In this document: in pieces, positions 4,651 to 42,972 of the stretch
How positions within the stretch are numbered: the stretch's first letter is position 1
How the letters are laid out: each line of letters opens with the position of its first letter
IMG/VR virus record: IMGVR_UViG_3300026488_000017
Location: 40,396 to 104,395 of that record
Source of the DNA: a virus
Lineage: Duplodnaviria > Heunggongvirae > Uroviricota > Caudoviricetes
Direction: 5' to 3' (one strand)
Length of the DNA stretch: 64,000 bases
The notes under the pieces: model-generated
Seen by the model: the letters and a program-made list of their open reading frames with translations, nothing else
Databases searched by the model: none
What the model was told of the DNA's origin: nothing
Made by a program: the position numbers and the translations under genes

Positions 4651-6156
4651 CTACCACTCATCTTCGTTAATCCCCTCTTCATCTTTTTCTTTACAGATTC
4701 TTTCAAAATCAGCTACTGTAGCAACTTTTGTCATTGTGCTCTTTCGTTTATTCTTTAAACGAATCTTAAATGTTTCTCTCTGTTCCATATATTCTTCATA
4801 AGTTTTTATCTTACTAAGTTTTGTCATAGCCCATCGATAATCTTTATCGGGAATACTGTGAAAGTCGCCTTTTCTAAAAAGTTCTACTTGGTCAAAATAT
4901 GTTCTAAGTTCCATCGCAAAGTGTAAATAAGTCTGTAATGAAATAGCATTAAGATGATTTCTAATACCTTCAATCTCTCCAAATTTCTCTTGAAAAGGTT
5001 TAATACCAGTCATACCATCTTCTCTCCAAGGTGAATATTTCTCTTGGAATTCTTTCCTAGAAAGTTTATTTCCACCTATCGTGTTCATAAGCAAATCTTC
5101 GTAAGCATCTTGTGTTTTCTGCATAAATTCTGCTACATCGGGTGCATCTTTATCTCTACCTAAACAACCCGATACGAGTTTTAATGAATGAGTTTCCTCT
5201 CCATCACGAATAAAAGATTCATCTACAAGTTTTGTATATTTACCGAATGTACTAGCACCAGTGTGTGAAGTTGAATCAAAAGTATAATGAACATCTTTAC
5301 CAAAGAAATCATTATTTAATGCAAATAAGACACCTGATTTAGATGGTCCACCTAATCCTAGAATATGTATAAGTTTTCTATGTTCTTCGGGTACCTCTGT
5401 TAAATCTCTAGGTGCTCTACAATATAAATCGAACATCTGAAAGTAAGGGATAATACCTGATGTAGCTAATGAAAGACCACCAATGTACTCAAAATATTCT
5501 GCTTTCTGTGCATCAGGCATTTCATTGAATACTGAATAAACACCACGAGCATATTCGTTATAGTCTTCGATTTCCCAACCTTGTACAATAACCATTACTT
5601 TAGTATCAGATTTTTCTTTCATAAAAACTTCAATTTGTTCTTTTATGTTAAATCCTGATTCTCGACCTGCATCAAATCTTAATTCTTCAACAAAATATTT
5701 AAGACTGTGGTCCATCTTCATACCTTGTCCAGCATTATTACTACCGGCTATAGTGTGTCGTTTTGCTTCATCCACTAGAATAGGCATCTTATCAAAACTC
5801 ATAGCGTGAGAACTAAATGTTGCTTGACATTTGTAGATTCCTAATTTGATTTCAGGTGTCATAGTTTTACCTAATGTGATAACCTGAAGTCCACCTGAAT
5901 CTGATTGTACCATTAATGTTTTCTCGGGAGTATTTAAACCTATGAGAATATCTTCTGTAGCCTGTTCTGTGAAAGCATTGTAAAGACTTCCTACACCACA
6001 ATGTTCTGTATAATCATCCAATCCAAATAGAACACCTTGAATAAATTCATCGTATTCTTTTGTCATATTTAATTTAACAGCGTGTCGTTGTATTAAGTGT
6101 AATCTTGTGAATGTGGTCATCGCTGATGCGATGTATGTTTTTTTGATATTTGCCAT
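4651..6156 (-). CDS. tRNA-guanine-transglycosylase-family protein, probable DNA 7-deazaguanine transglycosylase (DpdA-like)
   Basis: Three TGT-family motifs in the correct order: SDSGGLQV (compare DSGGFQ), IGGLSLATSG (compare GGLAVGE) and HILGLGGPS (compare YLMGVGxP); no CxCxxC zinc site; directly upstream of queE. Confidence 0.55.
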   Translation of the reverse strand: MANIKKTYIASAMTTFTRLHLIQRHAVKLNMTKEYDEFIQGVLFGLDDYTEHCGVGSLYNAFTEQATEDILIGLNTPEKTLMVQSDSGGLQVITLGKTMTPEIKLGIYKCQATFSSHAMSFDKMPILVDEAKRHTIAGSNNAGQGMKMDHSLKYFVEELRFDAGRESGFNIKEQIEVFMKEKSDTKVMVIVQGWEIEDYNEYARGVYSVFNEMPDAQKAEYFEYIGGLSLATSGIIPYFQMFDLYCRAPRDLTEVPEEHRKLIHILGLGGPSKSGVLFALNNDFFGKDVHYTFDSTSHTGASTFGKYTKLVDESFIRDGEETHSLKLVSGCLGRDKDAPDVAEFMQKTQDAYEDLLMNTIGGNKLSRKEFQEKYSPWREDGMTGIKPFQEKFGEIEGIRNHLNAISLQTYLHFAMELRTYFDQVELFRKGDFHSIPDKDYRWAMTKLSKIKTYEEYMEQRETFKIRLKNKRKSTMTKVATVADFERICKEKDEEGINEDEW

Positions 6157-6167
6157 TTATGTCCTTG

Positions 6168-6212
6168 TTGAGCGTATTATAACATTAATTTGCTTAATAT
6201 TACACGCCTGCC
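6168..6212 (-). promoter_or_regulatory. conserved promoter motif upstream of the TGT-family gene
   Basis: gcgtattataacattaatttgcttaatat. Confidence 0.4.
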
Positions 6213-6973
6213 TGATTGTTCCAGATGCGAATGTGGATTCTATCCGAATACTTGAAACCATTATCGATACATTTCTCCATAACAAATTTAGCATTTTCTT
6301 GAAGTGTTTCATTTGTATCACCAAGTGGCATTAAATAAACATCCATATATACTGGAATTGCTTTAAGAATCTCTTGAATCTCTTTGAAATCTTGCTCCCA
6401 AGATGCTTTAGAACATACAAATTTAAGGTACGATTTAGGTGACATTTCTACGATATTCGTTAAATTGTCGATATTGATTCTTTTGTGCTCTAACTCGCCA
6501 CTATTTGATAGTTTTACTGAAGTCGAAAACATTATCTCTTTTTGGTACTCGCGTGTAAAATTAATATCTAATGCACCATTAGTTTCGATTGTAATCTTAT
6601 GACCACGAGAAACATAGTGAGAAATAGTTCTTTGAAAAACTTCATCTTTCCAATAGATTAAAGGCTCTCCACCAGTGAATACAATATCAGGTTTCGTTAA
6701 AGAGTTCTTACCAAAATCGGGGATTGTAGCATCGATTCTCTCGACTAATTCTTCATATTCTGTGATAACATCCCATTCTTTTTTAAATGATTTATCGACT
6801 GAATAATACGAGTCACAACCAAATTTCTTTTCGCCTGTTATAGGGTCTTCATAAGGTACTTTAAACCCTGCACAAGTAAAATTACATAACGCACTTCTTA
6901 CAAATACAGAAGGGACTCCCATACGAGAACCCTCACCTTGTACTGAATAAAAACATTCCATTAATGAATACAT
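6200..6973 (-). CDS. queE: 7-carboxy-7-deazaguanine synthase (radical SAM)
   Basis: ECFYSVQGEGSRMGVPSVFVRSALCNFTC, plus TGGEP and ETNG motifs typical of QueE. Confidence 0.8.
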   Translation of the reverse strand: MYSLMECFYSVQGEGSRMGVPSVFVRSALCNFTCAGFKVPYEDPITGEKKFGCDSYYSVDKSFKKEWDVITEYEELVERIDATIPDFGKNSLTKPDIVFTGGEPLIYWKDEVFQRTISHYVSRGHKITIETNGALDINFTREYQKEIMFSTSVKLSNSGELEHKRINIDNLTNIVEMSPKSYLKFVCSKASWEQDFKEIQEILKAIPVYMDVYLMPLGDTNETLQENAKFVMEKCIDNGFKYSDRIHIRIWNNQAGV

Positions 6974-6982
6974 ATTTGCTCC

Positions 6983-7492
6983 TTAAGCTAGTCTTAGGTT
7001 ACCTAGTTCGTTGATTAAGATAATATCTGCTTCAGTATAATCTCCATAAGCTGTTAATTGCTCATTAAGTTTTGCTAATGATTCTTCATCTGCTTCAAGT
7101 TTTTCTGAAGGAGTGATACGATACATTGTTGGACCTTCTGAACCTTCTTCATTCTCTGTTGGTGTACTAACGATGAAACCTTGTTTAGCATAATCACCAA
7201 GAACATAAAATCTCTCTGGAACAACAACACCAACTACTGTTAAGGCACCATCTAATGCTTCTTCTGATTCGTTAAATGCTACACCATCAAGTGTACTTTC
7301 TGAAACCAAGTTAGCCATTCTCTTTAAGTTAGAAGTATAACCACCATTTAATACGATAATAGTTTTGCCTTTTTCAGCCCACTCTCCGTATAACGCATTG
7401 TCTGTTAATGAACATTCAGCTACAGCGTGTGCAGTTTGAATACCTTTTTGAATATCTGATAGATACATATTTGTAATTGAGTAAAATCTCAT
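6983..7492 (-). CDS. hypothetical protein (acidic C-terminal half)
   Basis: ORF with an upstream promoter-like motif; no recognisable motifs. Confidence 0.4.
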   Translation of the reverse strand: MRFYSITNMYLSDIQKGIQTAHAVAECSLTDNALYGEWAEKGKTIIVLNGGYTSNLKRMANLVSESTLDGVAFNESEEALDGALTVVGVVVPERFYVLGDYAKQGFIVSTPTENEEGSEGPTMYRITPSEKLEADEESLAKLNEQLTAYGDYTEADIILINELGNLRLA

Positions 7493-7509
7493 TTTAGTCC
7501 TTTGTGTTT

Positions 7510-7545
7510 GTTTGAGTAATTATACAATATCTTTACTTAATAAAA
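7510..7545 (-). promoter_or_regulatory. promoter motif variant (TGTATAAT)
   Basis: gagtaattatacaatatctttacttaat. Confidence 0.35.
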
Positions 7546-7897
7546 TTACTTTTTCTTTGTAAGCTTCTAATGTTTCATTCACATTATCTGCTAGTACATC
7601 TGGTTCATATTTTTTGTACGGCATAATATCATCGTGAGAATCGAAAATACTAGAATCCTGGGGTACAACCATACCAACCAGCGTCTTCTTGTCTTCTAAC
7701 CACTCAAAAAATAAACCATTTTCTATGAGAACGGCTTCTAACGAATGCAGTTCTGCTGTGTTCATCACCTCGAGAATTTCAATGCCTTTAACATCTTTCT
7801 TGAATTCGTTAATGATACCACCAGCTTGTGAGATAATAGAGGCTAAACGATTGAATGAAATTTTCAAATCTTTTCTTATGAGTATTTTGCTTTTCAT
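7520..7897 (-). CDS. hypothetical protein
   Basis: ORF in a co-directional gene train; no motif recognised. Confidence 0.4.
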   Translation of the reverse strand: MKSKILIRKDLKISFNRLASIISQAGGIINEFKKDVKGIEILEVMNTAELHSLEAVLIENGLFFEWLEDKKTLVGMVVPQDSSIFDSHDDIMPYKKYEPDVLADNVNETLEAYKEKVILLSKDIV

Positions 7898-8127
7898 TTA
7901 CCCAGCCTCTGTATAAAATAATTGCTTTGTTGGTATTGAACGATATACATTTCTGCCTGAGCAAGATTCTCGTAAATAAAGGCATAGATTTCAGCTACAC
8001 CTTCACCTTCTTTTAAATCTATATCAAAGCTCATAAATGTTTTCGTTCTCTTTATTGATACTGCATCCATATTTATGAGCACTATCTGTAAATCGGGGAA
8101 CCTTTGTACTTTATTTGTTAAATTCAT
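7894..8127 (-). CDS. hypothetical small protein
   Basis: short ORF overlapping its neighbours by 4 nt in the operon arrangement. Confidence 0.3.
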   Translation of the reverse strand: MNLTNKVQRFPDLQIVLINMDAVSIKRTKTFMSFDIDLKEGEGVAEIYAFIYENLAQAEMYIVQYQQSNYFIQRLGK

Positions 8128-11458: not shown

Positions 11459-11530
11459 TTTCTTTATATGTAATATTATAACATAATCAACCTTAAGGCT
11501 TTATAAATATCAATAAAATATAGGTGAAAA
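11459..11530. promoter_or_regulatory. full promoter motif copy fused to a plus-strand promoter (TTTATAAATA) at a strand-switch; drives the ankyrin gene 11532
   Basis: ctttatatgtaatattataacataatcaaccttaaggctttataaatatcaataaaatataggtgaaaatATG; near-identical to the copy at 33296-33374. Confidence 0.45.
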
Positions 11531-12241: not shown

Positions 12242-13537
12242 TCAAGCGTAAATATCATTGTACGAGAATTGCCCTAATTCCACTTCATTCCCCATTGGCA
12301 TAATAAGACCTTTCATCATATTATGAATAACTGCTTCAGGAATGAATTTCCCTTCAGTCTCGTTTCGTGTTACATTTCGTTCAAAAATAGTATCGTAATC
12401 AGTACAGAAAAAACGGCTTCTTGTATCATATTTTTTGAGACGCTCATTGAATTTTTGACGGTAACCTTTGTCTTTATTTTCTATCTGAAACGAGAACCAT
12501 TTTCTTCGTGCTTTAGGCCCAACATTTGTCATATCGATAATAATATCATCACCTCTTAGTACAGCACACTCGAACTGCGAACGAATCATACGGTCGATTT
12601 CTGATTGGTCGTCCGATGTAAGAAGCGTCCAAATCTCCCCATATTTAAGAGATTTCCCATATTTGAAGCGACCTAGCTCTAATAGTGTAGCGTCTCTGCT
12701 AATCACTGTGGTATCCTCATCGACATTCTCTTTAATATAAGTGCTCTTACCTGATAGCGGTACGCCTACGAGTGCTGTGATACTACGGTCACTAATGATT
12801 CTAGTGCCTTCATCCATATCTCTATCAGGCCAGAATTTGTCCATAAAAGGCTTACCATAAAGAACGGTACCTAGCAATGAACCTTCATCAGACCTAGCAT
12901 CAGCAGATGGTGAGAAACGACCAGTGGAATCATAACGAACCTGATTAACAAATAACGGAAATAAACTTTTGTGGTTTTTCCATCGTTCTGCTACTTTCTC
13001 AGGTTTGTGCTCTTTACCATCCTTGATGCTGTCAAAAAGTGTACCGTGTAATGAGATAATCGTAAGCACATCTTGCATTTCTGAAGGAAAAATCACACCC
13101 ATTTTCACAAGCTCTTGTAACGGCTTTACAGCTTTATATACTGAAATCCCTTCGTGGCCTCTGAAATGCGTTTTCCATTCTCTAGCTAAAGCCTTTGTCT
13201 TAGAGTGCTCTTTATCCGCCTCACGAAGCTCGTTAGATTCTGTGTGGGTAGGTTTAGGCTTATTGAATGGAATAACCTCTCTCGATGCTGGCTTACCAGT
13301 GTCGTGTAGTAATGCTGCTAAAAGATTTACTGTCTCAGCTCTATCATTCTGTGCTTGTAAACATACCATCATCGTGTGAGTCCATACAGAATCTTCCAAA
13401 TGATATGGATTAGGTTCTGAATCTACAGCGGCGTGATTACTAGCTTTCATTTCGTTAGCTAAATCTGTGAATTCCATTTGGAACCAATTCACTAGTTCTG
13501 CCATTGATGGTTTTTGTTTTTCTTTAAAATAATTCAT
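12242..13537 (-). CDS. HD-domain phosphohydrolase fused to P-loop kinase domain (polynucleotide kinase/phosphatase-like)
   Basis: N-terminal HD motif H...LLHDTGKP; C-terminal Walker A GVPLSGKSTYIKE. Confidence 0.5.
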   Translation of the reverse strand: MNYFKEKQKPSMAELVNWFQMEFTDLANEMKASNHAAVDSEPNPYHLEDSVWTHTMMVCLQAQNDRAETVNLLAALLHDTGKPASREVIPFNKPKPTHTESNELREADKEHSKTKALAREWKTHFRGHEGISVYKAVKPLQELVKMGVIFPSEMQDVLTIISLHGTLFDSIKDGKEHKPEKVAERWKNHKSLFPLFVNQVRYDSTGRFSPSADARSDEGSLLGTVLYGKPFMDKFWPDRDMDEGTRIISDRSITALVGVPLSGKSTYIKENVDEDTTVISRDATLLELGRFKYGKSLKYGEIWTLLTSDDQSEIDRMIRSQFECAVLRGDDIIIDMTNVGPKARRKWFSFQIENKDKGYRQKFNERLKKYDTRSRFFCTDYDTIFERNVTRNETEGKFIPEAVIHNMMKGLIMPMGNEVELGQFSYNDIYA

Positions 13538-33374: not shown

Positions 33375-33761
33375 ATGCTATTTACTGAAAAACATATTAA
33401 AAACGAGATAGAAGATATAATTCTTACGCTTGAGAGTACTAAGAACTTAAACGAAGCCGACGCAGAGAATGTATTTGCTCATACTGCATCACAACTAAAG
33501 AACTTGATGCCTTTTTATAAGAAAATGCTAACCAAAGTTAAAATGTACACGAATATTAAGAATTCAGGCAAAGATGCTGAAAGCAATAAAATTATTAGAA
33601 TATACACAAAGAAAAAAGAAGAACTAGCAAATGACTTTGAGCGACTACAAAAAGTCGTTATGGATTTAACTGTGATTATGGATTTAGATGAATTAACAAA
33701 ATTTGCTAAAACAGTCGATAATTTAGAAGCAACAGTAAATAACCATCATTGGGCTAAATAG
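33375..33761 (+). CDS. hypothetical coiled-coil protein
   Basis: first gene of the plus-strand island; promoter-like TTTATAAATA upstream. Confidence 0.4.
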   Translation: MLFTEKHIKNEIEDIILTLESTKNLNEADAENVFAHTASQLKNLMPFYKKMLTKVKMYTNIKNSGKDAESNKIIRIYTKKKEELANDFERLQKVVMDLTVIMDLDELTKFAKTVDNLEATVNNHHWAK

Positions 33762-33802
33762 ATAAATACTGATAAAGAAAATACTAAAGAGAGGAGAATA
33801 CA

Positions 33803-35650
33803 ATGGGTTTAATTTTTGATGATGTCCACAGAATTGCCAATATACCGATTCAGATTGCTATTGCTGGAGAAGATTTATATGTAGGTGATGTAGTAGAATA
33901 CCAAGATTTCGATGAGGCTAATGAACTTGCAATAATGCGTCGTAGAACTGGTAACGATAAAATTGTTGCTGGTGTTGTTGGTAAAAATACAGTAGCGGGT
34001 GATGAGTTCGCTCTAATCAAAGAAGGTAGAATTACTGAATTTGATACTAGTGCTTGGGTACTAGGTGACCTTTTATATCCTAATGCTACGGGTGGAATTG
34101 TAAACTACAAAGTAGTACAAGCTGGTATTATTAATCAGAATATTGGTGCTGTTATTAAGGTTGGTACGACTGACGGTGCAATGGATATTCTTGTTAAGAA
34201 TCCAACCGAGAAAGCTGTTGAAATTCCTTATACGAATACGAATAGTGGTCTTGCTGCAGATAATGTTAAAGATGCAATCGATGAAGTAGAAGCTAGAAGC
34301 GATGTTTCAGAAGACCGTTTACAGACTTTAGAAAATAAGATGGCTGGTATAGAATCAGGTGCAACTCGTGACCAAACTCCAGTAGAAATTAAAACACTTT
34401 ATGAGTCAATGTTAAATACAAACGAATATGATGATGCTGAACAATTCAAAGTAGCTCAAATAGCAGTTACTCAACCAGTAGATTTAGATTTCATTGAGAA
34501 AAAAGATGAAGACCGTAGAAACATTGTTGGTACATTAAGCTTACCTCTAAGTCACATTCCTTTACTAGTTTCTTTAGACTATGCAATAGGTTCAGGTAAT
34601 ATCAAATTCTTTAGAGCACAAAACACTACTCAAGGTACAACTTATGTAGATAGAAACGGTACAGTTCGCTATGCAGACAATGATGAACCTAGATTCGAAC
34701 AAGAAGGTCTTCTTTTGGAAGGGTCTAGCACAAATCTATTTGCTAATTTCATCAAATATGATGATTGGAGTGGTAAAACTATAAATGTTGATTCTAGTAT
34801 AGCTCCTGATGAGAATACAACTGCTGGTACTGTAACTTTTAGTACAGCAAATAATGGTAGAGTTTTCAAAGATGTTTTATCACCTAACTTAAATGGCCAA
34901 GATTGTACTTTCAGTATATGGTTAAGAGGCGTAACGGGTTCAGAAACTTGTACACTAAAATTATCTGATGCTGTTACTGATACAAATAATGCTTCAGAAA
35001 CTTTTACTCTAACGAAATATTGGAAGAGATATAATGTTACTGGAAAGATTAATAATATTGGTGGATATGATGGATACAGATTACAAGTAATAGGTACAAC
35101 GGGAGAGACTGTTAATATATGGGGTACTCAACTTGAAACTGGTGTTCTTATGACATCTTTAATACCTACTTTTGGTGCTACAAAGCAGAGAAATGAAGAT
35201 ATTTGTGAGGTTGATTTCTTAGATAATCTTATGAATGCAGAGAAAGATTATACAATAATGATAGATGTTCATATGCCTAAGCTTAGAACAGCAAACAAAA
35301 TGAGAACTGTTTTTGGAGTTCAAGGTGAAGAACATAGATACTTTAGAGTTTCTAGTACTGGAGATATAGAGACTGCAGGTTTAGGTACAGCTACATCTGA
35401 CAAATATGTTTCTGATACATTCCGTTATATGAATATTTCAAAAGATGGTGTACATACTGGTTATGTTAATGCTGGTGGTTTACTTATTACAGATAAAGGT
35501 ACAAATAACGATGAAGTGACTATAACAGGCACAAGAAAGATAGTTTTAGGTAATGCAGGACACGGTTCTAGTACACCAATGTTTGGACACCTTAGAAATT
35601 ATAAAGTGTACGATTTCGCTTTACTAGATGAAATGTTGAGGTTAGCATAA
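33803..35650 (+). CDS. tail fibre/receptor-binding protein, paralog 1 (lectin-like C-terminal domain)
   Basis: shares the EPRF...G.L.E...TNL...S.D.S.W...SPDGT.N..KI and W/IWG.QLE.G...TSLIPT blocks with the two downstream ORFs. Confidence 0.5.
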   Translation: MGLIFDDVHRIANIPIQIAIAGEDLYVGDVVEYQDFDEANELAIMRRRTGNDKIVAGVVGKNTVAGDEFALIKEGRITEFDTSAWVLGDLLYPNATGGIVNYKVVQAGIINQNIGAVIKVGTTDGAMDILVKNPTEKAVEIPYTNTNSGLAADNVKDAIDEVEARSDVSEDRLQTLENKMAGIESGATRDQTPVEIKTLYESMLNTNEYDDAEQFKVAQIAVTQPVDLDFIEKKDEDRRNIVGTLSLPLSHIPLLVSLDYAIGSGNIKFFRAQNTTQGTTYVDRNGTVRYADNDEPRFEQEGLLLEGSSTNLFANFIKYDDWSGKTINVDSSIAPDENTTAGTVTFSTANNGRVFKDVLSPNLNGQDCTFSIWLRGVTGSETCTLKLSDAVTDTNNASETFTLTKYWKRYNVTGKINNIGGYDGYRLQVIGTTGETVNIWGTQLETGVLMTSLIPTFGATKQRNEDICEVDFLDNLMNAEKDYTIMIDVHMPKLRTANKMRTVFGVQGEEHRYFRVSSTGDIETAGLGTATSDKYVSDTFRYMNISKDGVHTGYVNAGGLLITDKGTNNDEVTITGTRKIVLGNAGHGSSTPMFGHLRNYKVYDFALLDEMLRLA

Positions 35651-36921
35651 TGGCAGATAACAGAAATCCTATAAAGAGTACCGGTTGGTCACTCAAAGAA
35701 ATAGCAAAGAAATTCAAAGATGGTATTACTACTCACTCTGAATCAAAAGGTGAAATGGGAGAGGTTTCTACGCCTCTCGTTAATCTACCACTTAATCGTG
35801 ATTTATATTTCTCGTATGGTGTAGGTGAAGTAGAATTTTTTAGGAATTCTGTTGGTACTTATTTCGATTTACAAAACATAATGAGAACAGCACAAATGAA
35901 TGTGCCTCGTTTTGGTCCTAATGGTTTATTGGTAGAATACCAAACGACAAATCTAATTGCTTACAGCACTGATAGTGCATCTAGTAGATGGACAGCACCT
36001 AACAGTGGTTGGGCTGGGTCTATAAACGCTTATTTTTCTCCAGATGGTACTAAGAATGCAGATAAGATTTTGACATCTAAAACAGCAAGTACTCTTCGTT
36101 TTGTTCTTAGTAATACTCCTACTGATACACAAGGTACACTAGCTAATATGTCTGCTGGTACATATACATTCAGTTTTTATATTAAAGATGTCGATGGTGG
36201 TGTACAATCACTAAATATTTTAGTGGGTTCAGAAAATATCGATTTAGAATACAATACATCAGATAAATGGACAAGACAAATAGCTACTTTTACAGTAACA
36301 GCCTTTACTAACATTGATTTAATTATAGGTTCAGATGGTACATTAAATAATAGTAGTATTTGGGGTGTCCAACTAGAAAAGGAAGAAGGTGTTTCGAGTC
36401 TTATTCAAACTGTTGGCACTGGATTAACTAGAAAGGCAGATTTTGTTGAAGTTCAAGGACTAAACAACTTCCCCGATTGTACTAAAGTTTCAGCCACTAT
36501 ACAGTTCACACCAGTTAATACTTCAGGTGGATATGATATTATGGGTGGATACGATGGTACAACAAAAGTAACATCTTTTTCATTAGATGATTCACTTAGT
36601 CTTAAAGCACTCGTGATAGATGAAAATGATGTCGGGTCAAGTTTAGCTACACCACCTGACTATATAGAACTTGAAGATGCACAAACTTACACATTTGGTT
36701 ATGCTTTAAATAACCAAAATGATACTTGTGATTTATTCTTAGGTTCAGTAATATTACCGAGTACAGCATCGATTGTGAACGACTTCATACCAAAAGGAAT
36801 AGTAGATACTATTGTATTGGGCGGAGAGAGAGGAAACAGTACAGCTAGAATGGCTGGGTACATTAAAAATCTAAAGATATTTGATAAAACTTTAATAAAA
36901 GCATCATTTAGTCTTATATAA
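35650..36921 (+). CDS. tail fibre/receptor-binding protein, paralog 2
   Basis: homologous blocks (NVPRFGPNGLLVEY..TNLIAYS, IWGVQLEKEEG); ATG overlaps the upstream stop (TAATG). Confidence 0.5.
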   Translation: MADNRNPIKSTGWSLKEIAKKFKDGITTHSESKGEMGEVSTPLVNLPLNRDLYFSYGVGEVEFFRNSVGTYFDLQNIMRTAQMNVPRFGPNGLLVEYQTTNLIAYSTDSASSRWTAPNSGWAGSINAYFSPDGTKNADKILTSKTASTLRFVLSNTPTDTQGTLANMSAGTYTFSFYIKDVDGGVQSLNILVGSENIDLEYNTSDKWTRQIATFTVTAFTNIDLIIGSDGTLNNSSIWGVQLEKEEGVSSLIQTVGTGLTRKADFVEVQGLNNFPDCTKVSATIQFTPVNTSGGYDIMGGYDGTTKVTSFSLDDSLSLKALVIDENDVGSSLATPPDYIELEDAQTYTFGYALNNQNDTCDLFLGSVILPSTASIVNDFIPKGIVDTIVLGGERGNSTARMAGYIKNLKIFDKTLIKASFSLI

Positions 36922-36930
36922 GGAGATATT

Positions 36931-38052
36931 ATGAAATCAGTAAGTTTTGAAAACATCGTTGAATTATTTAACGATGGTATTAGACAAACAGAAGACAATA
37001 ATGGTTTAATGTCCGATTTACAGAATACTATTCTTGAAATGCCCTTAAAGAATTCATTAGTAATGACAAAAGGTCCAGATTCAGGTGAATATACAAGGAC
37101 TGGACAAGCTACTATTATTGATAGATATGGTATCGTTCGTTATTTTAACGCTAATGAGCCTCGTTTCAATGAGAAAGGAATGCTATTTGAGGATTCTCGG
37201 ACAAATCTTATACCATATAGTAATGATTTTAGTCATTGGGGTGGAGCCACAAAAACATCAGGTTTTGGAATATCTCCCGATGGTACACGGAATTCAACAA
37301 AAATAAACTATTCTGGCGGAAATCAATCGGTGTCGATAGCTAATATCACAACGGTTGGACAAAAATATTCAGGTCAAATCTGGATTAAAGGTATCAAAAA
37401 TCAAACGATTCTGTACCAATTCGGAGGTGGTGATAGAATGCACACCTTAACGGGGAAATGGGACCTTATTAAATGGGAAAATTTCACATCGAATAGAACA
37501 GATTTTAACATAAGCACATACGGTGGAGCTACAGCTAGAGAGGTTGAGGTTTTTGGTGCTCAATGTGAATCAGGTGAGATAGCTTCATCATATATTCCTA
37601 CGAATGGTTCTACTGAAACGAGAGGTAAAGATATTCTCAAAATTTATTCTGAAAATATTTTACAATTTAATTCAACAAGAACGATAGCTTTAGATTACAC
37701 GCCTCTTAAAAAAGACTGGTCTGAAACGAGAGAAATTTTAAATTTTAGTAATGCTACGCAGATGAGAATCAATACAGATAATGATTATCAATTTTTCAAT
37801 AACGGGACCAGTATGCTCATCGATGAGGTACAAGGTACTGATACAGAAAGGTTGGTGTACGCATTGAGCGATAATGATTTCAAAGGTTATTTCCAAGGTG
37901 ATTTAGTGAATACAAAACCTATCACGATTACGACAGCTAAGGTAACGAGTATTGATATTGGTTCTGATACCAACCGTTCAGCTTGGGGATATATAAGCAA
38001 TATAAGATTCTACGATAATACGCTTGGTGATATGGCCCTTATTGTGATATAA
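36931..38052 (+). CDS. tail fibre/receptor-binding protein, paralog 3
   Basis: homologous blocks (EPRFNEKGMLFED..TNLIPYSNDFSHWGG..SPDGTRNSTKINY; FGAQCESGEIASSYIPT). Confidence 0.5.
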   Translation: MKSVSFENIVELFNDGIRQTEDNNGLMSDLQNTILEMPLKNSLVMTKGPDSGEYTRTGQATIIDRYGIVRYFNANEPRFNEKGMLFEDSRTNLIPYSNDFSHWGGATKTSGFGISPDGTRNSTKINYSGGNQSVSIANITTVGQKYSGQIWIKGIKNQTILYQFGGGDRMHTLTGKWDLIKWENFTSNRTDFNISTYGGATAREVEVFGAQCESGEIASSYIPTNGSTETRGKDILKIYSENILQFNSTRTIALDYTPLKKDWSETREILNFSNATQMRINTDNDYQFFNNGTSMLIDEVQGTDTERLVYALSDNDFKGYFQGDLVNTKPITITTAKVTSIDIGSDTNRSAWGYISNIRFYDNTLGDMALIVI

Positions 38053-38079
38053 ATATAATAAAAGAATAAGGAGAATATT

Positions 38080-38457
38080 ATGGCATTCAATAGATTAATA
38101 ATAACATACAGCGAAAATACGAAAAAATTAGAAAAAGAAATGAAAGAGGCTTTTCCTGAGCGTGTAAAGGTCGATGACAATGGAGATATTTATTTCGATA
38201 TTATCAAGACACAAACCGTACGAAAGAATAACCTTACCTTATCAGCTATATTAGTGCAGTCTCCATCGGATTATGAAATGCTTGATAGTTTACAGTATCT
38301 AACAGTGCTTGGTTCGTACGAAAAAATATTCAAAACACCTAGCTTATTAAAAATATACAAAAAGGTATATGATTTCACTAAAGCTGTTAAAGCTGTTGAT
38401 GAAAATGGAATTAAATATGAGTGGTTTCCACCTGAAAAGTTCTGTGACATAGCATAG
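38080..38457 (+). CDS. hypothetical protein
   Basis: ORF in the plus-strand island. Confidence 0.4.
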   Translation: MAFNRLIITYSENTKKLEKEMKEAFPERVKVDDNGDIYFDIIKTQTVRKNNLTLSAILVQSPSDYEMLDSLQYLTVLGSYEKIFKTPSLLKIYKKVYDFTKAVKAVDENGIKYEWFPPEKFCDIA

Positions 38458-38467
38458 GTGATAGCTT

Positions 38468-38941
38468 ATGATTTGTACATTAGAGGTTACAAAAAATCTC
38501 GATAGCATTTCTAAGGATTTAAGCTTACAGCTTAATGCTTTAGATGAGGATATGAACTCACTACACAAGCATATAATACAGCTTGGAGTGAAATATCCAG
38601 AACAGCAGGAGCTTATTGAGTTCATCGTATTCATTAACGATAGATTGGGTACAAGACACAGCCAAGTTGAGGACATTATGAGCCAAACTATCTCTGATTT
38701 AATTAGTTGCGAGAAACAAATGGTAGTCATAAATGAGAAACTAATGACAAAAATAGATTCAATATCAAGCAAAAAAGGTTTTTGGAGTACTGTCGGGAGT
38801 AAGATTTCTTCAGTAAATGATATTAAAGTATTATTTGGTTTAGGTTTTGTTGTTTCATTGGTCATTGCTAGAATATTCTTTCCAGAATCTAGTAGCGAAT
38901 TCTTAGCTGATATGATAAATATTACAATAGGTAAAAAATAA
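38468..38941 (+). CDS. hypothetical protein with C-terminal TM helix
   Basis: VLFGLGFVVSLVIARIFF hydrophobic C-terminus. Confidence 0.4.
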   Translation: MICTLEVTKNLDSISKDLSLQLNALDEDMNSLHKHIIQLGVKYPEQQELIEFIVFINDRLGTRHSQVEDIMSQTISDLISCEKQMVVINEKLMTKIDSISSKKGFWSTVGSKISSVNDIKVLFGLGFVVSLVIARIFFPESSSEFLADMINITIGKK

Positions 38942-38951
38942 GGAGAATATT

Positions 38952-39632
38952 ATGTTTGAAAAATTTATGAGTCTTTTCAGACCCAAAGAAGAGGTTGAAA
39001 AGGGTATTGTTAGTGCAGACCTTTTCAGCGTTGAAGAAGTAGATAAAACAGACCAACATCAAAAATGTTTAGATAGATATGGTGAGTGTAGGTTATGCGA
39101 ATTAGAGAATGACTACCTTCACGAAATATTAGATGAGTGTGAGTTAAAAATAGACCCAAATAAAGAATCTATTCTGTTACTAGATGATAATAGTGGTGTG
39201 ATTTCTTTCTTAATGGACGATTTCAATAGTATTAAGAAGAATGGTGGATTTGACCACACAAAATATAATGTTTTGAAACTAGATACAAAACTTGCAGCAT
39301 TTAAGTTGAGAGCTCTTCTATACAGTAACAAAAAATTAAGAATAAAATATGCTATATTAGATATTACTCTAGGTGGTACACTATACAGTAATGAAGGTAG
39401 AAATATTACATTAGATGGTGTAGATAGCCTTTTAGATATTTTAGAAGTACATCCTGATGTAAAATATTTCTTCTATACTGGAAATAAACTAAATCCTTAT
39501 ATTAAAAAGAATGAGGAAATTATTTCAAAATTTAGTAAGAAATTAGATGGTAATATAAACGATAAGATTTTATTCAAAACAAGTTTAACGAGAGAAGGTA
39601 GGCAAGAATATATTAGTAAGTTTTTTGAGTAA
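38952..39632 (+). CDS. response-regulator receiver (REC) domain protein with N-terminal Cys cluster
   Basis: LLLDDNSGV (acidic pair), AILDITLGG (phospho-acceptor Asp), FFYTGNK (conserved Thr) and PYIKK (conserved Lys) at REC-like spacing; N-terminal C-x6-C-x2-C...C. Confidence 0.5.
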   Translation: MFEKFMSLFRPKEEVEKGIVSADLFSVEEVDKTDQHQKCLDRYGECRLCELENDYLHEILDECELKIDPNKESILLLDDNSGVISFLMDDFNSIKKNGGFDHTKYNVLKLDTKLAAFKLRALLYSNKKLRIKYAILDITLGGTLYSNEGRNITLDGVDSLLDILEVHPDVKYFFYTGNKLNPYIKKNEEIISKFSKKLDGNINDKILFKTSLTREGRQEYISKFFE

Positions 39633-39634
39633 AT

Positions 39635-40825
39635 ATGAAGAATATAACGCTATACAAAAAACAAATAATAATATTCTTCTTAGCTATTTCAATAATGATG
39701 GTTTCATTAACTGCTATGATTGTGGAAACTCGTTCACATTTACTACAAGCAAAAGCAAATGTATATATGTCGAGAGTAATCGAAGACCGTTCTCCGTTAG
39801 AAAACTCGTTTAGAATACTAAAAGATGGGTGCACCTGGTATGTGGATAATAACCTGAATATTACAGGCAAAAGAGACAACAATATGGTCCCTCTAATCCA
39901 GATTGGTGATGTAATCCTTGATACTGATTATGAAATTTTTGTAGAATATGACGGTTATCTGCTGGTTGATGATAATATAGGGAATGTGTTATTTAAGCTT
40001 CTATGGTATGGTGCATTATTCTCATTCATACTCATTGTTATTATGTTGCTACTACTAGATACTTCGGTATCCAAAGAAAGAGACCACACTCTCAAAATAT
40101 TATTAAGCAATGAAGCTTTGTCATCGAGTAAAACTACGATTATGATTACAGAAAATGTGCACCACGAACTCAACACACCAATGGAAGTAATAGAAAACAA
40201 GATTGCTAAAATCCAAGATTTCTTGCTACCGGTGCTTTTAAATGAAGATTTATTTGTTAAAGAATATGCTTTAGAAATCAACGATGACTTTGAATTGATT
40301 GCAGAATCAGCAGAATTAGTACATAATGTTCTTAATAGTATGAAAGAATATAAGCACCTTAGATATAGTAATGGCAATAAAACTCTGTATGACATCATCA
40401 ATGGTGCATTTAGTATATTAAATTATACTACTGGTAACTTCAACTATGAAGTAGATGTTAGATTGAAATTGTATAAGCTAGATGATTCTACATTCAGGAA
40501 TGCTACTCTAGTGAATATAATTTTAAATCACTTGAAGAACTCGCTATCTGCTAATAGCACAAAGATAATAGTGCTATTCGATAAAATAGAAAAGGGTATA
40601 TGTACTTTTAGAATCATTGATAATGGTAATGGGATAGCGAAGAAGAACATCGCAGAGATTTTTAAACCAAATTTCAGCACAAAAGATGTTCCAGGGGAGA
40701 TTTCAGGTAACGGGTTATTTCTCAATAAGACTATACTAACAGAACATAGTGGAGGCCTAAAACTAATCGACACATCAACTCTAGGTACTACATTCGGTAT
40801 TGGTGTTCCAGCAATTCTACGCTAG
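39635..40825 (+). CDS. membrane-bound sensor histidine kinase
   Basis: two TM helices flanking an extracytoplasmic loop of about 90 aa; H-box HHELNTPMEVIEN; N-box IILNHLKNSL; G1 DNGNGI; F IFKPNF; G2 GNGLFL. Confidence 0.7.
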   Translation: MKNITLYKKQIIIFFLAISIMMVSLTAMIVETRSHLLQAKANVYMSRVIEDRSPLENSFRILKDGCTWYVDNNLNITGKRDNNMVPLIQIGDVILDTDYEIFVEYDGYLLVDDNIGNVLFKLLWYGALFSFILIVIMLLLLDTSVSKERDHTLKILLSNEALSSSKTTIMITENVHHELNTPMEVIENKIAKIQDFLLPVLLNEDLFVKEYALEINDDFELIAESAELVHNVLNSMKEYKHLRYSNGNKTLYDIINGAFSILNYTTGNFNYEVDVRLKLYKLDDSTFRNATLVNIILNHLKNSLSANSTKIIVLFDKIEKGICTFRIIDNGNGIAKKNIAEIFKPNFSTKDVPGEISGNGLFLNKTILTEHSGGLKLIDTSTLGTTFGIGVPAILR

Positions 40826-41143
40826 AATATCTAATTCATTTTTCGTTACTGGTTCGAGATTACAATCTAACATTAGCATTGTAGTTTCATATTTTGTGGA
40901 AGTTTCGTGAAGTTTTTCTAAGACTGCAGACATCGTTGTGTTGGAGATTTTAAGCTGTTTATTAGCATACTCTAGCTTCGATGCTAAGTCTTCATTGGCA
41001 TCTTGTAAAGACTTACATTTATTTAATAGAAAATCACGACTACGGTCTGCTTTCAAATCAACAATCTCTTGCTTCAATCCTGCATACAATGCATTCATTT
41101 CATCTACTTGGTCTTGTGTGAGTTTATATTTTTTAGTGAACAT
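40817..41143 (-). CDS. hypothetical coiled-coil protein
   Basis: ORF; promoter motif upstream (41150-41192). Confidence 0.4.
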   Translation of the reverse strand: MFTKKYKLTQDQVDEMNALYAGLKQEIVDLKADRSRDFLLNKCKSLQDANEDLASKLEYANKQLKISNTTMSAVLEKLHETSTKYETTMLMLDCNLEPVTKNELDILA

Positions 41144-41418: not shown

Positions 41419-42972
41419 TTATTCTCCTAAGTATAATTCTTTAATCTCATCATACATTTTATGTATTGATTTATGAGTGTGTTTCTTGAAATATTTTTCA
41501 TCTTCTATATTAGCTATCACTTTAGTTGCACTCGTGTCATCATCAGTTCTTAGTGTCTCTACGACACTTAAATCAGGATTACGAGATAATGAGTGTTTGT
41601 AGTCTGAAACCCTATCAGACCCCGCTAATACAATATTTATATTCTTATCAGCCTTACCCATAATACCAAATAGATTTCCAGTCGAGTGATTAACAATTTC
41701 TACTTTAGGGAATGCTGTCTTAACCATCTTGTTTCTTAAATCTTTTGAGAATTTAGTTTCTTTTCCAGTAACAACACAAACTACACCACCATCATAGTCT
41801 TGTAGTCCTTTTTGAATGATTTTGTAATGAGCTTCAGTAAGAATCCTAAATTTACCTAAGAATAAAAAGTTATTATTTTCTTTTAATCTCTTTCTAAGAA
41901 TCATTTTGATATTACCTTGAATATCATCTTTTATCATTGTGTTATCTCTTTTAGTGTGTTTAAAACGAATCGTAGTACCTTTCAGTTCTTTCGCTGCTTT
42001 CTTAAGGAAATTAGGAAATTCCTTTTCTGTGACTGGTTTTACTGTGATTCTCATAATGATTTCAAGAGCATACATCCTTACTTGTTTCCAATATAAGTCG
42101 TTCTTATCATCCTCATCTTCATTGTATCTTGCTTTAATAGCCCTTCTTGCTTCGGGGTCTATTTGGTACTCTTGCTGAAATTTAAGAATAGTTCCATTTT
42201 TAAAGTCAATTACTACACCTTCTTCAACACCACCATATACTGACTCAACCTCTAAGAACATTTCTCTTAGGTCATCGATAAGTAATTCTTTGTTAGTCCA
42301 ATTCATTGAAGATTTTCTCTGAGCATAAATACTCTTTAATTCTTTCATTTTGATTGATTTCTCAAAAGTAGCAGGATTACCTAAAATACCTTCGAATAAT
42401 AGAGCAGGTACATCAAGACCTATGATTTTAGCATATTTGTCACGACCTTCAGTATTGAAAGCAGTAGGCGAAGATTTTAGTTTCCCCATTTTGTTTGTGT
42501 ACGATGTAGGTGAATATGCAATAAGCACCATACCGTGAGTCTGCTTGTAAGAAGATGATAATGTAGGTTTTCTCATTAAGAACTCAACAAAAAATTCCGT
42601 TGAATCAGCAATACCAGATATTTTTCCTTGTTTTTCTAAGTGATTAAATATTATTTGGAATTGAGCATTAGCAATACTAGATTTCTTGATACTTGAATCA
42701 GCAGCGAAATCAAATTCACCTGGATACTGAACCTCACCTTTGTATGCAACAATCCAATCAGTAGTCCAGTCGCCTGTGTCACCGACATATATTAAAGTAA
42801 TCTTAATACCATCCGTTTTATGTTCTACAACACAGCTGTCGCTTAAGAAATTATCTCTTTTTTTGTCGTTTGTCACAAACTTACCAACTGACTTGATACT
42901 TATGTCTAGTTGGTCTTTGGCTTCTGTTAAGAAACCACTGAAACTCTTTAAATTTATCATTCTATTCTCCAT
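41419..42972 (-). CDS. ATP-dependent RNA-ligase-like nucleotidyltransferase with C-terminal cytidylyltransferase-like domain
   Basis: motif I EHKTDGIKI (KxDG), motif IV EGVVID, motif V ILKF; C-terminal GKFRILTEAH resembles the (H/T)xGH nucleotidyltransferase motif. Confidence 0.45.
   Translation of the reverse strand: MENRMINLKSFSGFLTEAKDQLDISIKSVGKFVTNDKKRDNFLSDSCVVEHKTDGIKITLIYVGDTGDWTTDWIVAYKGEVQYPGEFDFAADSSIKKSSIANAQFQIIFNHLEKQGKISGIADSTEFFVEFLMRKPTLSSSYKQTHGMVLIAYSPTSYTNKMGKLKSSPTAFNTEGRDKYAKIIGLDVPALLFEGILGNPATFEKSIKMKELKSIYAQRKSSMNWTNKELLIDDLREMFLEVESVYGGVEEGVVIDFKNGTILKFQQEYQIDPEARRAIKARYNEDEDDKNDLYWKQVRMYALEIIMRITVKPVTEKEFPNFLKKAAKELKGTTIRFKHTKRDNTMIKDDIQGNIKMILRKRLKENNNFLFLGKFRILTEAHYKIIQKGLQDYDGGVVCVVTGKETKFSKDLRNKMVKTAFPKVEIVNHSTGNLFGIMGKADKNINIVLAGSDRVSDYKHSLSRNPDLSVVETLRTDDDTSATKVIANIEDEKYFKKHTHKSIHKMYDEIKELYLGE

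Follow-up and report, generated by a model that had tools for sequence, protein, structure and literature searches.

A putative phage-encoded histidine kinase and receiver pair with a tail-anchored partner in a T4-like giant phage

Introduction

Bacteria sense their surroundings mainly by means of two-component systems, which are considered to belong to the equipment of cells. Whether a bacteriophage can possess such a system of its own, and what it would use it for, is the question raised by a locus in a 64,000-nucleotide stretch of viral DNA (IMG/VR record IMGVR_UViG_3300026488_000017, positions 40,396 to 104,395), which is called the window below and is part of a metagenomic contig of 331,651 bp. 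A first-pass annotation of the window had proposed that two adjacent open reading frames (ORFs), 38952-39632 and 39635-40825, encode a cognate pair of a receiver (REC) domain protein and a membrane sensor histidine kinase. Both ORFs were found exactly at these positions on the plus strand, coding for 226 and 396 amino acids, and the proposal is borne out by hidden Markov model (HMM) matches, predicted folds, gene linkage in related loci and the phage genes present in the window. Judged from sequences and structural models, it is very probable that the two proteins form a genuine cognate phosphotransfer pair of histidine kinase (HK) and response regulator (RR) that is resident in phages.

In the literature that we searched, we found no description of a phage that encodes both a kinase and its regulator, a statement that covers that literature only. 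The nearest phage precedent found is the temperate Clostridioides difficile phage phiCDHM1, of which the agr3 locus encodes AgrD, AgrB and AgrC and no response regulator; these quorum-sensing genes are approximately 55-61% identical to the agr genes of the host and were judged to be horizontally acquired (PMC3901668). Like the kinase studied here, the lone host-derived AgrC is a phage-encoded histidine kinase that is located in the membrane and contains a HATPase_c domain (PMC3901668). In contrast to phiCDHM1, the window encodes a response regulator and no signal-peptide or processing gene, its proteins are far from cellular homologs, and the phage appears to be T4-like.

The sensor histidine kinase

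The gene at 39635-40825 (plus strand), which is the third gene of the module described below, encodes a 396-residue protein in which a first transmembrane segment (TM1), an extracytoplasmic loop, a second transmembrane segment (TM2), a dimerization and histidine phosphotransfer (DHp) domain and a catalytic and ATP-binding (CA) domain follow one another. The CA domain (residues ~251-395; 40385-40819) was delimited by a Pfam HATPase_c (PF02518) match, by its sequence boxes and by structural comparison. The Pfam match covers residues 291-392 with an E-value of 2.7e-10 and a score of 41.1 bits, against a gathering cutoff of 26.4 bits. The N-box (N298/N302), the G1 box DNGNGI (329-334), the F-box (342-350) and the G2 box GNG (358-360) are all present, and the H-box HHELNTP occupies residues 176-182. 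In 46 kinase homologs N298, N302, D329, G331, G333, F343, N346, G358 and G360 were invariant, as were H176, H177, E178, N180 and P182 of the H-box. When 114 homologs were compared, the H-box, the N, G1, F and G2 boxes and a family-specific HLRYSNGNK motif were conserved to at least 95%. Conservation of the catalytic motifs at this level greatly exceeds a chance expectation.

The predicted DHp helical hairpin (residues ~150-244; 40082-40366) was placed by alignment, NCBIfam models and conservation. A phmmer alignment of residues 172-392 with HK853 (4jas) put H177, the predicted phospho-acceptor (40163-40165), on the H-box histidine of HK853; T181 corresponds to T264 of that kinase. The NCBIfam models PhoR, KdpD and TtrS align to the protein from approximately residue 174 onward, and the closest cellular models reached an E-value of only ~1e-12. 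The sensor part (39662-40069) was derived from hydropathy and the structural model. Hydropathy placed TM1 at ~10-32 and TM2 at ~119-145, flanking an extracytoplasmic loop of ~86 residues (33-118; 39731-39988), where ~90 had been estimated in the first-pass annotation. The AlphaFold (AF2) model of the kinase, with a predicted local distance difference test score (pLDDT) of 77, consists of TM1, a β-rich loop, a long helix running from TM2 into the first DHp helix, the second DHp helix and an α/β CA domain, with the helices at residues 8-48, 115-203 and 209-244. Within the loop, the model has seven short strands between residues 59 and 112, where the pLDDT is low (45-70). Foldseek comparison of this model with the PDB retrieved YF1, HK853, CpxA and ZraS with E-values of 1e-12 to 1e-9, those of the last three being 1e-11 to 1e-9. 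A HAMP or PAS domain was not found in the kinase. From sequence and model together the ORF is assigned as a predicted two-TM HisKA-type (class I) sensor kinase, in agreement with the original proposal.

The extracytoplasmic loop was poorly conserved among the 114 homologs. Most kinases of the family carry in this loop the motif NIxEYxEIDxExLCxIxxC, which includes a pair of cysteines. In the window kinase and its closest relative (P0021) both cysteines are replaced (S53 and S58 in the window protein) and there is a short deletion, and therefore the sensor input of these two kinases appears to have diverged. The most divergent kinases of the family, encoded at 5784-7166 of locus L017 and at 5945-7303 of locus L018, have an insertion of ~30 residues in the ATP lid between the F-box and the G2 box as well as extra Cys-rich segments in the DHp loop, and match Pfam HATPase_c only below threshold.

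The receiver protein

The gene at 38952-39632 (plus strand), the second of the module, encodes a 226-residue RR-like protein that is predicted to be soluble, with no transmembrane segment in the hydropathy profile, and that combines a variable N-terminal extension with a divergent REC domain. An AF2 model built from 19 homologs had a pLDDT of 85.7 overall and ~95 over residues 70-226, and displayed the (βα)5 order of a receiver. The REC domain, placed at residues 72-226 (39165-39629) by the modeled secondary structure and by fold matches in the PDB, has strands β1 to β5 at residues 73-77, 106-110, 131-136, 171-176 and 206-208, and helices α1 to α5 at residues 81-96, 115-124, 156-166, 185-198 and 214-225. 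Nearly all PDB structures retrieved by Foldseek with this model were receivers (Spo0F, RcsB, HupR, CheY, DrrB, PorX), with a probability of 1.00 and a target-normalized TM score of ~0.67; the best neighbor was Spo0F with an E-value of 5e-5. A HAD-phosphatase fold and a TIR fold were also considered as assignments for this protein and were rejected on the position of the nucleophile, which for HAD enzymes would be at β1 and here is at β3, and on the dominance of receiver matches.

The residues expected at a receiver active site are found at the expected positions. D78 and D79 (39183-39188) at the C-terminal end of β1 align with CheY D12/D13 and form a predicted acidic metal-binding pair; of the 163 family members compared, 150 retain the first aspartate and 154 the second. 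D137 (39360-39362; codon checked) at the C-terminal end of β3 aligns with CheY D57 and is the predicted phospho-acceptor (156/163). The switch residue T176 (39477-39479) at the end of β4 aligns with CheY T87 and is T or S in 154 of 163 members, and the predicted receiver lysine K209 (39576-39578) lies at the end of β5 in ILFKTS and is K in 138 of 163, with gaps accounting for 23 of the 25 others. Thus three of the landmarks on which the first-pass annotation had based its receiver proposal, LLLDDN (75-80), AILDITLGG (134-142) and FFYTGNK (173-179), were well chosen: their D79, D137 and T176 did not vary among the 19 closest homologs and reached a conservation of at least 90% in the 163. The fourth landmark, a lysine in PYIKK, was misplaced, since K185 and K186 are conserved in only 60 and 29 of the 163 sequences and the true lysine is K209 in LFKTS. 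Other invariant positions in the 19 closest homologs were K209, G177, N178, L180 and N181, and the β4-α4 segment, TGNxLN, is strongly conserved in the family.

An exhaustive HMMER search defined an RR family of 316 clusters at 50% identity, all with lengths of 190-290 amino acids. Among 55 members that are 20-45% identical to the window RR, the sole invariant or near-invariant columns were D78, D79, D137, T176, K209 and a G156/D158 motif at the start of α3. The complete DD/D/T/K quintet was present in 124 of 147 full-length members. Pfam Response_reg matched 14 of the 55 divergent relatives (best E-value 4.6e-6) and gave weak matches to the L017 and L018 proteins; these relatives appear to link the family to the canonical receivers (PF00072). 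When the model was compared with viral structures (BFVD), the best matches were receivers of giant-virus hybrid kinases, in addition to a few annotated phage 'CheY-like' proteins.

Two elements distinguish the protein from a plain receiver. The first is the N-terminal extension (residues 1-71; 38952-39164), in which residues 1-21 are disordered and two helices are predicted at 32-43 and 51-62. This extension has a median length of 65 residues in the family and is not conserved. The cysteine cluster that had been noted there in place of a DNA-binding output domain is real (C39, C46, C49 and C63) and no output domain is present, but the cluster is optional: the number of cysteines in the extension is bimodal among the 147 full-length members, with 0-1 in 81 and four in 45. 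Metal binding by these cysteines is a conjecture. The second element is a β-hairpin insertion of ~11 residues (143-153; 39378-39410; strands 143-145 and 151-153) in the β3-α3 loop beside D137, at a position that is a gap in canonical receivers. Outside the receiver no Pfam or NCBIfam domain, and thus no DNA-binding output domain, was detected. Because of this lack of an output domain, the protein is predicted not to be a transcription factor of any known class (OmpR/PhoB, NarL/FixJ, LytTR, NtrC).

Genetic linkage and the three-gene module

To count gene linkage, 54 locus records (L numbers) were available; their sources were assemblies, IMG/VR, genomes of GTDB and metagenomes of JGI. Of these records 43 were used, and clustering at an RR identity of at least 90% reduced them to 40. 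A kinase gene was located downstream of the RR gene, on the same strand and within 1.8 kb, in all 31 testable non-redundant loci. In addition, 30 of 35 testable non-redundant loci carry immediately upstream of the RR gene a gene for a small membrane protein that we call the anchor. In the window this is gene 1 of the module (38468-38941, plus strand), with a product of 157 residues that comprises a coiled-coil-like N-terminal part of ~118 residues, a C-terminal transmembrane segment at ~119-139 and a tail of ~18 residues. The topology was derived from hydropathy. Four distant loci encode homologs of the protein, with identities of 29-37%. The anchor family counts at least 42 proteins of 140-195 residues with no Pfam domain, and neither a similar PDB sequence nor an informative Pfam similarity was found for the window protein. 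The order is retained even in L017 and L018, where the RR is near the detection limit: a protein of ~170 residues with a C-terminal TM, the RR and the kinase. Beyond these three genes the neighborhoods differ between loci. Anchor, RR and HK thus appear to constitute a conserved three-gene module that is probably co-transcribed.

The TAA stop codon of the RR gene and the ATG of the kinase gene are separated by 2 nt, which suggests that the kinase is translationally coupled to the RR gene and that kinase output is lower than RR output. The 18 nt ending at the start codon are identical for the RR gene (38935-38954) and for orf125 (38063-38082), with the sequence AATAAGGAGAATATTATG. This sequence is a strong Shine-Dalgarno element; the ribosome-binding sites of the anchor and kinase genes are weaker. 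The gene orf125 (38080-38457, plus strand; 125 residues) precedes the anchor gene and is probably co-transcribed with the module, but stands outside its core: L001, a syntenic locus, yielded the only homolog (42% identity), and the protein had no Pfam, PHROG or PADLOC match. A six-frame search of the window for a second HK, RR, anchor or canonical REC returned none.

Some loci show variations on this arrangement. In L006 (Ga0256837_1000006, 193.7 kb) an opposite-strand antibiotic-biosynthesis-monooxygenase-like (ABM) gene and a 198-residue ORF lie between RR and kinase (7022-7979). The 198-residue ORF, which directly precedes the kinase gene, was rejected as an RR since it is not homologous; the true RR lies two genes further upstream. 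The same locus has a tail-fibre-like gene of 767 residues with Laminin_G_3/PA14 domains 1.7 kb downstream of the kinase. In one subclade the kinase is followed on the same strand by a conserved pair of genes for ~77-98 and ~415 residues (L004 9234-10705, L010 6127-7673, L012 5934-7474 and L014 ~5837-7146, with a weak case in L011); this pair is absent from the window, and no Pfam or PHROG match was obtained for the L004 copy. An endolysin gene was close to the module in L004/L005 and in a single further locus only, and such proximity is not general.

A late-promoter box upstream of the module

The sequence TATAAATA, which we take to be the -10 element of T4-type late promoters, occurs at 38048-38055 (plus strand), 25 nt upstream of orf125, and marks a probable start of the transcription unit. 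With 12 copies in the window, against 13 expected, the box is not over-represented. Its positions are nevertheless far from random: 8 of the 12 copies lie no more than 60 nt upstream of a start codon on the same strand, against 8.4% for permuted 8-mers (P ~1e-6). These copies, at 11502, 13607, 21044, 29741, 33346, 38048, 47801 and 61300, precede the starts by 12-36 nt and include those of a 1114-residue tail-fibre/baseplate gene and of the tail-protein island upstream of the module. Of 30 non-redundant loci from related phages, 23 have an exact TATAAATA in the 80 nt that precede the anchor gene, mostly at a distance of 16-30 nt, where the background is 0.022 per 80 nt. The window phage thus seems to use T4-type late promoters, with the boxes serving as a partial map of its late transcription units, and from the comparison of loci we infer that anchor, RR and kinase form a late operon. 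A generic scan for sigma-70 promoters and terminators gave no more sites in the window than in shuffled sequence.

These data bear on the possibility that the pair serves host signaling instead of a circuit of the phage. In such a cross-talk or hijack scenario the phage kinase would mainly phosphorylate or dephosphorylate host response regulators, or the RR would be a phosphate sink or a Spo0F-like relay for host kinases and histidine phosphotransfer proteins, so that host signaling is rewired and no closed phage circuit exists. An RR that has no output domain and has the relay protein Spo0F as its best structural neighbor would fit this scenario, as would phiCDHM1, where the kinase has no RR of its own and was suggested to use AgrA of the host for signaling (PMC3901668). 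However, the co-inheritance of HK and RR in 31 of 31 loci and their predicted translational coupling argue that they are each other's main partners, both families are far from cellular ones, which makes a matched host specificity less likely, and a late promoter leaves little time for host transcriptional reprogramming. We therefore regard cross-talk as unlikely. Of the functions suggested in the first-pass annotation, a rewiring of host regulons, if it took place early in infection, fits poorly with the late-promoter evidence; lysis timing and superinfection sensing are speculative.

Distribution and phage residence

The window carries a T4-type family-B DNA polymerase gene, the product of which is ~30% identical to polymerases of T4-like Campylobacter phages, together with genes for a DnaB-like helicase, the 1114-residue tail-fibre/baseplate protein and tail fibres. 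By its gene content the window is assigned to a T4-like giant phage, for which the label 'virulent' is plausible. Searches among 50,697 GenBank phage records gave zero matches by megablast with the locus and zero by tblastn with the RR. The kinase gave four weak tblastn matches to these records, all at the level of HATPase_c; one is a Salmonella genome record, and two more share its coordinates and identity.

The module was also nearly absent from cellular genomes. Among 185,579 species-representative genomes of bacteria and archaea there was one match to the RR family, on a 5.8-kb contig of a Cloacimonadota metagenome-assembled genome (MAG). All three genes of the module lie on this contig, which is probably phage DNA that was mis-binned. 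One kinase homolog is labeled 'MAG: sensor histidine kinase [Bacteroidales bacterium]' and stems from a contig of only 5-6 kb. The larger module-bearing contigs (20-331 kb) carry phage replication, tail and endolysin genes. Since the single genomic match lies on a MAG contig with the module itself, and since gene order is kept while the members diverge to 20-30% identity, the module appears to be an old, phage-resident one and not a recent capture from a host.

In the window the module is located on a plus-strand island of eight genes (33375-40825) within an otherwise minus-strand region, with the kinase as last gene. Throughout the island the GC content is uniform. Both skews, GC and AT, change sign relative to the flanks. 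A strand-switched position of this kind, like the Bacteroidales and Cloacimonadota labels, could be expected if an ordinary host two-component system had recently been captured as a moron with no phage-specific role, or if bacterial DNA had been mis-assigned to a virus. Against this, the two MAG contigs measure only 5-6 kb and the Cloacimonadota one is probably phage DNA, the single match among the species genomes contrasts with the 316 RR clusters from metagenomes, and phage genes accompany the module on the long contigs. The uniform GC content, the late-promoter box at the head of the module and the gene order retained down to 20-30% identity, which points to long residence in phages, argue in the same direction. 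We consider recent capture or mis-assignment extremely unlikely.

The three plus-strand genes upstream of the module on the island, with products of 615, 423 and 373 residues, all match the tail-protein PHROGs 5939 and 1419 and thus appear to be paralogous tail proteins, as had been recognized. The association of the pair with such a tail-fibre island, to which the first-pass annotation had attached importance, was seen only in the window, in L001 and loosely in L006. What is conserved instead is the third gene, the late promoter and often a clpX gene.

The clpX neighborhood

A clpX-like gene (zf-C4_ClpX, AAA_2 and ClpB_D2-small domains) is divergent from and adjacent to the module in 9 of 26 non-redundant long loci and on five further short contigs. 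The arrangement in L045 differs: there the gene is convergent and adjoins the module on its opposite side. Full-length ClpX homologs are encoded on the minus strand at 8204-9394 of L002, 2149-3300 of L008, 2269-3444 of L010, 2147-3385 of L012 and 2190-3368 of L014, and homologs beside the module also occur among L023-L042 and in L045. No clpP gene was seen near the module-adjacent clpX genes. Many of the clpX-positive loci originate from one related sample series (Ga02568xx).

CpdR of Caulobacter and RssB of Escherichia coli are ClpXP adaptors that are built on receiver domains. By analogy, the RR could be a phosphorylation-gated adaptor or anti-adaptor of the phage ClpX, coupling an envelope signal to late proteolysis or unfolding, which would be a specific version of the output step discussed below. 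This is supported by the immediate divergent position of clpX in L002, L008, L010, L012 and L014, and the repeated adjacency in long loci and short contigs, combined with the different arrangement in L045, suggests more than frozen synteny. However, no clpX was found in the window or in the flanks of L001, L004, L006, L011 and L015, more than half of the long loci have no such link, and no clpP was seen nearby. Furthermore, many of the positives come from the Ga02568xx series, so that shared ancestry may inflate the count, and the structural neighbors of the RR do not single out CpdR or RssB. The adaptor function therefore has, in our judgment, a low probability.

Proposed mechanism

All residues predicted to be needed for ATP binding, for phosphorylation of the histidine and for acceptance by the aspartate are present in the two proteins and appear to be under strong purifying selection. 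On the basis of sequences and models, we think it reasonably likely that the three genes encode a complete, phage-lineage-specific phosphotransfer module that runs from sensing to a protein-protein output. From its sequence and fold, the kinase would reside in the inner membrane of the host, exposing the small ~86-residue loop between its two transmembrane segments. From what is known of the HisKA family, a cue from the envelope or periplasm would shift the helix that connects TM2 and DHp, upon which the CA domain would phosphorylate H177. The phosphoryl group would then pass from H177 to D137 of the RR, in which the Mg-binding pair D78/D79, T176 and K209 are intact. In HisKA kinases a threonine at the HK853 T264 position suggests phosphatase competence, and because T181 occupies this position the kinase is probably also the phosphatase of the RR.

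The output of the RR would be a phosphorylation-gated protein-protein interaction, not transcription, as with CheY, Spo0F, DivK and CpdR. This is suggested by the missing DNA-binding domain, the fixed architecture of 190-290 residues and the conserved β4-α4 (TGNxLN) surface. Either the phosphorylated or the unphosphorylated RR would bind its partner via TGNxLN and the α4-β5-α5 surface. The likeliest partners would be the co-conserved anchor and, where adjacent, the phage ClpX unfoldase; the anchor could be a target of the RR or an accessory regulator of the kinase. More speculatively, the module would control a decision late in infection, such as lysis timing, proteolysis or a superinfection response. 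Given the predicted late expression, such a role is more plausible than early reprogramming of host transcription. A closed viral circuit of this type, in which the kinase reads an envelope or periplasmic cue late in infection and the RR post-translationally controls a viral effector (the tail-anchored protein and/or the phage ClpX) that sets lysis timing, proteolysis or the superinfection response, is a tentative proposal that we hold to be possible but doubtful.

Several observations weigh against the proposed phosphotransfer module. Pfam Response_reg (PF00072) did not match the window RR at E ≤ 1, and a profile of the 19 close RR homologs gave only chance-level matches and no receiver among all PDB sequences. 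An hhalign comparison of the RR family with six canonical receivers was weak (E = 0.005, probability 7.5%) and was used only to check the alignment register. Approximately 16% of the full-length RR members are without one quintet residue in the alignment used, and the hairpin next to D137 could alter or block canonical docking. On the kinase side, Pfam HisKA (PF00512) gave no match to the window protein at E ≤ 1, and the input of the window kinase may differ from that of the family or be degenerate, as judged from the altered loop of this kinase and P0021. The promoter motif is the sole indication of late timing, the role of the anchor is something that we infer, and the association with clpX, missing in the 64-kb window, holds in only ~35-40% of loci.

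The HMM results deserve closer consideration. A Pfam check had been advised in the first-pass annotation, with the failure of HMM searches to recognize a receiver fold to be counted against the pair. HATPase_c was recovered in the kinase as expected, whereas HisKA and Response_reg both missed the window proteins. Only 2 of 46 kinase relatives match HisKA, and weakly (best E-value 0.0027). Because of this pattern the DHp domain is considered a divergent variant, and the miss counts against a formal membership in the Pfam family, whereas the assignment of the mechanism is not weakened by it. For the RR, scans with Pfam, NCBIfam and PADLOC returned nothing and PHROGs gave one insignificant match, so that HMMs do fail on the window protein itself. 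We nevertheless accept a divergent receiver as its predicted identity because of the fold, the family-wide quintet and the Response_reg-positive relatives that bridge to canonical receivers; by sequence methods alone the receiver would have been wrongly dismissed.

The same HMM misses and the odd hairpin beside the active site could also mean that the RR is not phosphorylated by the kinase and is a structural pseudo-receiver or a phosphoester-processing enzyme, comparable to the cRec domains or to a HAD-type phosphatase, and that the kinase-like protein acts alone, for example as a GHKL ATPase. Divergent Rec domains with roles outside two-component systems are indeed known: the cRec domain of jumbo phages has a divergent receiver fold with conserved catalytic Asp residues, and is stated never to occur in two-component histidine-kinase systems and to be linked to NAD+/ADP-ribose enzymes (Iyer, Anantharaman, Krishnan, Burroughs and Aravind 2021, PMC7824862). 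The RR family differs in being kinase-linked in every one of the 31 testable loci, and the top 25 neighbor families (Pfam or PHROG) of the module include no recurrent NAD+/ADP-ribose enzyme; an assignment as cRec was rejected on these two grounds. Pseudo-receivers typically lose the quintet, while the DD/D/T/K residues are the most conserved feature of this family. The invariant H-box histidine and the adjacent T181 would be superfluous in a plain ATPase, and the nucleophile at β3 does not agree with a HAD enzyme. A pseudo-receiver or stand-alone enzyme is therefore very unlikely, and the phosphotransfer module is the reading that is carried forward here.

Comparison with known systems

In its chemistry the phage pair resembles bacterial HisKA pairs with a single-domain RR, such as Thermotoga HK853-RR468, KinA-Spo0F and CheA-CheY. 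The H-E-x-x-T-P H-box in the DHp domain, the N, G1, F and G2 boxes of the CA domain, the (βα)5 receiver with its quintet, the adjacent and coupled genes and the RR that has no DNA-binding domain are all shared. Unlike these pairs, the present one is phage-encoded and nearly absent from cellular genomes, its receiver is missed by Pfam and its DHp domain by Pfam HisKA, and its RR has the variable N-terminal extension of ~65 residues and an 11-residue hairpin after the phospho-Asp. A tail-anchored third protein that travels with the pair and a T4-type late-promoter box are further differences.

Virus-encoded two-component proteins also occur in giant viruses (Ectocarpus siliculosus virus 1, Feldmannia irregularis virus, Tupanvirus and klosneuviruses). 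The proteins of these eukaryote-infecting Nucleocytoviricota are single-chain hybrid kinases with a fused receiver, whereas here kinase and receiver are separate, are encoded by a bacteriophage and are accompanied by an accessory membrane protein. CpdR and RssB are response regulators that act by protein-protein interaction with the ClpX machinery. For the phage RR such an output is a candidate only; here a phage clpX gene is the adjacent divergent gene in approximately one-third of the long loci. Unlike the phage RR, CpdR does not have an N-terminal extension, and RssB carries a PP2C-like domain at its C-terminus; the similarity of the phage RR to them is that of the common receiver fold only.

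A membrane accessory protein is co-encoded with HK and RR in LiaFSR, VraTSR and WalRK-YycHI, and in phage T4, a possible functional analogy, the RI/T proteins provide a late-expressed envelope sensor that sets lysis timing. The phage module is like the former in that a small membrane protein is encoded with HK and RR. The anchor has no detectable similarity to LiaF, VraT, YycH/I or RI, and its topology, a predicted cytoplasmic coiled coil with a C-terminal TM, differs from theirs. The new aspects of the system are thus its predicted residence in phages, a receiver and a DHp domain that are nearly invisible to Pfam, the extension and the hairpin of the RR, the third membrane protein and the late-promoter box; otherwise the chemistry appears to be that of ordinary HisKA systems.

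Other genes in the window

Downstream of the module, the kinase gene shares its last 9 nt with a convergent ORF for a 108-residue coiled-coil protein (40817-41143, minus strand); a hairpin resembling a terminator was not detected between the two genes. The gene at 41419-42972 (minus strand) encodes a 517-residue protein with a phrog_27149 match (E = 3e-145). Its N-terminus has the sequence EHKTDGIK, a KxDG-type nucleotidyltransferase/ligase-like motif, and its C-terminus has a weak cytidylyltransferase-like (NMNAT-like) match. In L001 a shorter counterpart of 455 residues, which has the same weak cytidylyltransferase-like match, is found downstream of the module at the syntenic place. From these motifs the protein may be a fusion enzyme for NAD+ metabolism or RNA repair. 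A 431-residue protein encoded at 12242-13537 (minus strand) matches polynucleotide-kinase and RNA-ligase-like PHROGs (phrog_6931, 505 and 8238), which suggests a role in RNA repair. ARAGORN found zero tRNA and zero tmRNA genes in the 64-kb window.

Conclusions

The analysis defines three unannotated protein families: a Pfam-invisible receiver, a kinase with a divergent DHp domain and a tail-anchored partner. Because the module is conserved across an uncultured phage lineage and nearly absent from bacterial genomes, the phages that carry it probably sense a signal themselves. The compact and orthogonal kinase/regulator pair might also be used in synthetic biology. If the module is functional, lytic phages would read the environment or the envelope themselves during infection and would act on it without transcription, which offers a testable route to understanding how large phages time late events. 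If the closed late circuit is also true, it would be the first autonomous two-component system shown to work for a bacteriophage and not for a cell.

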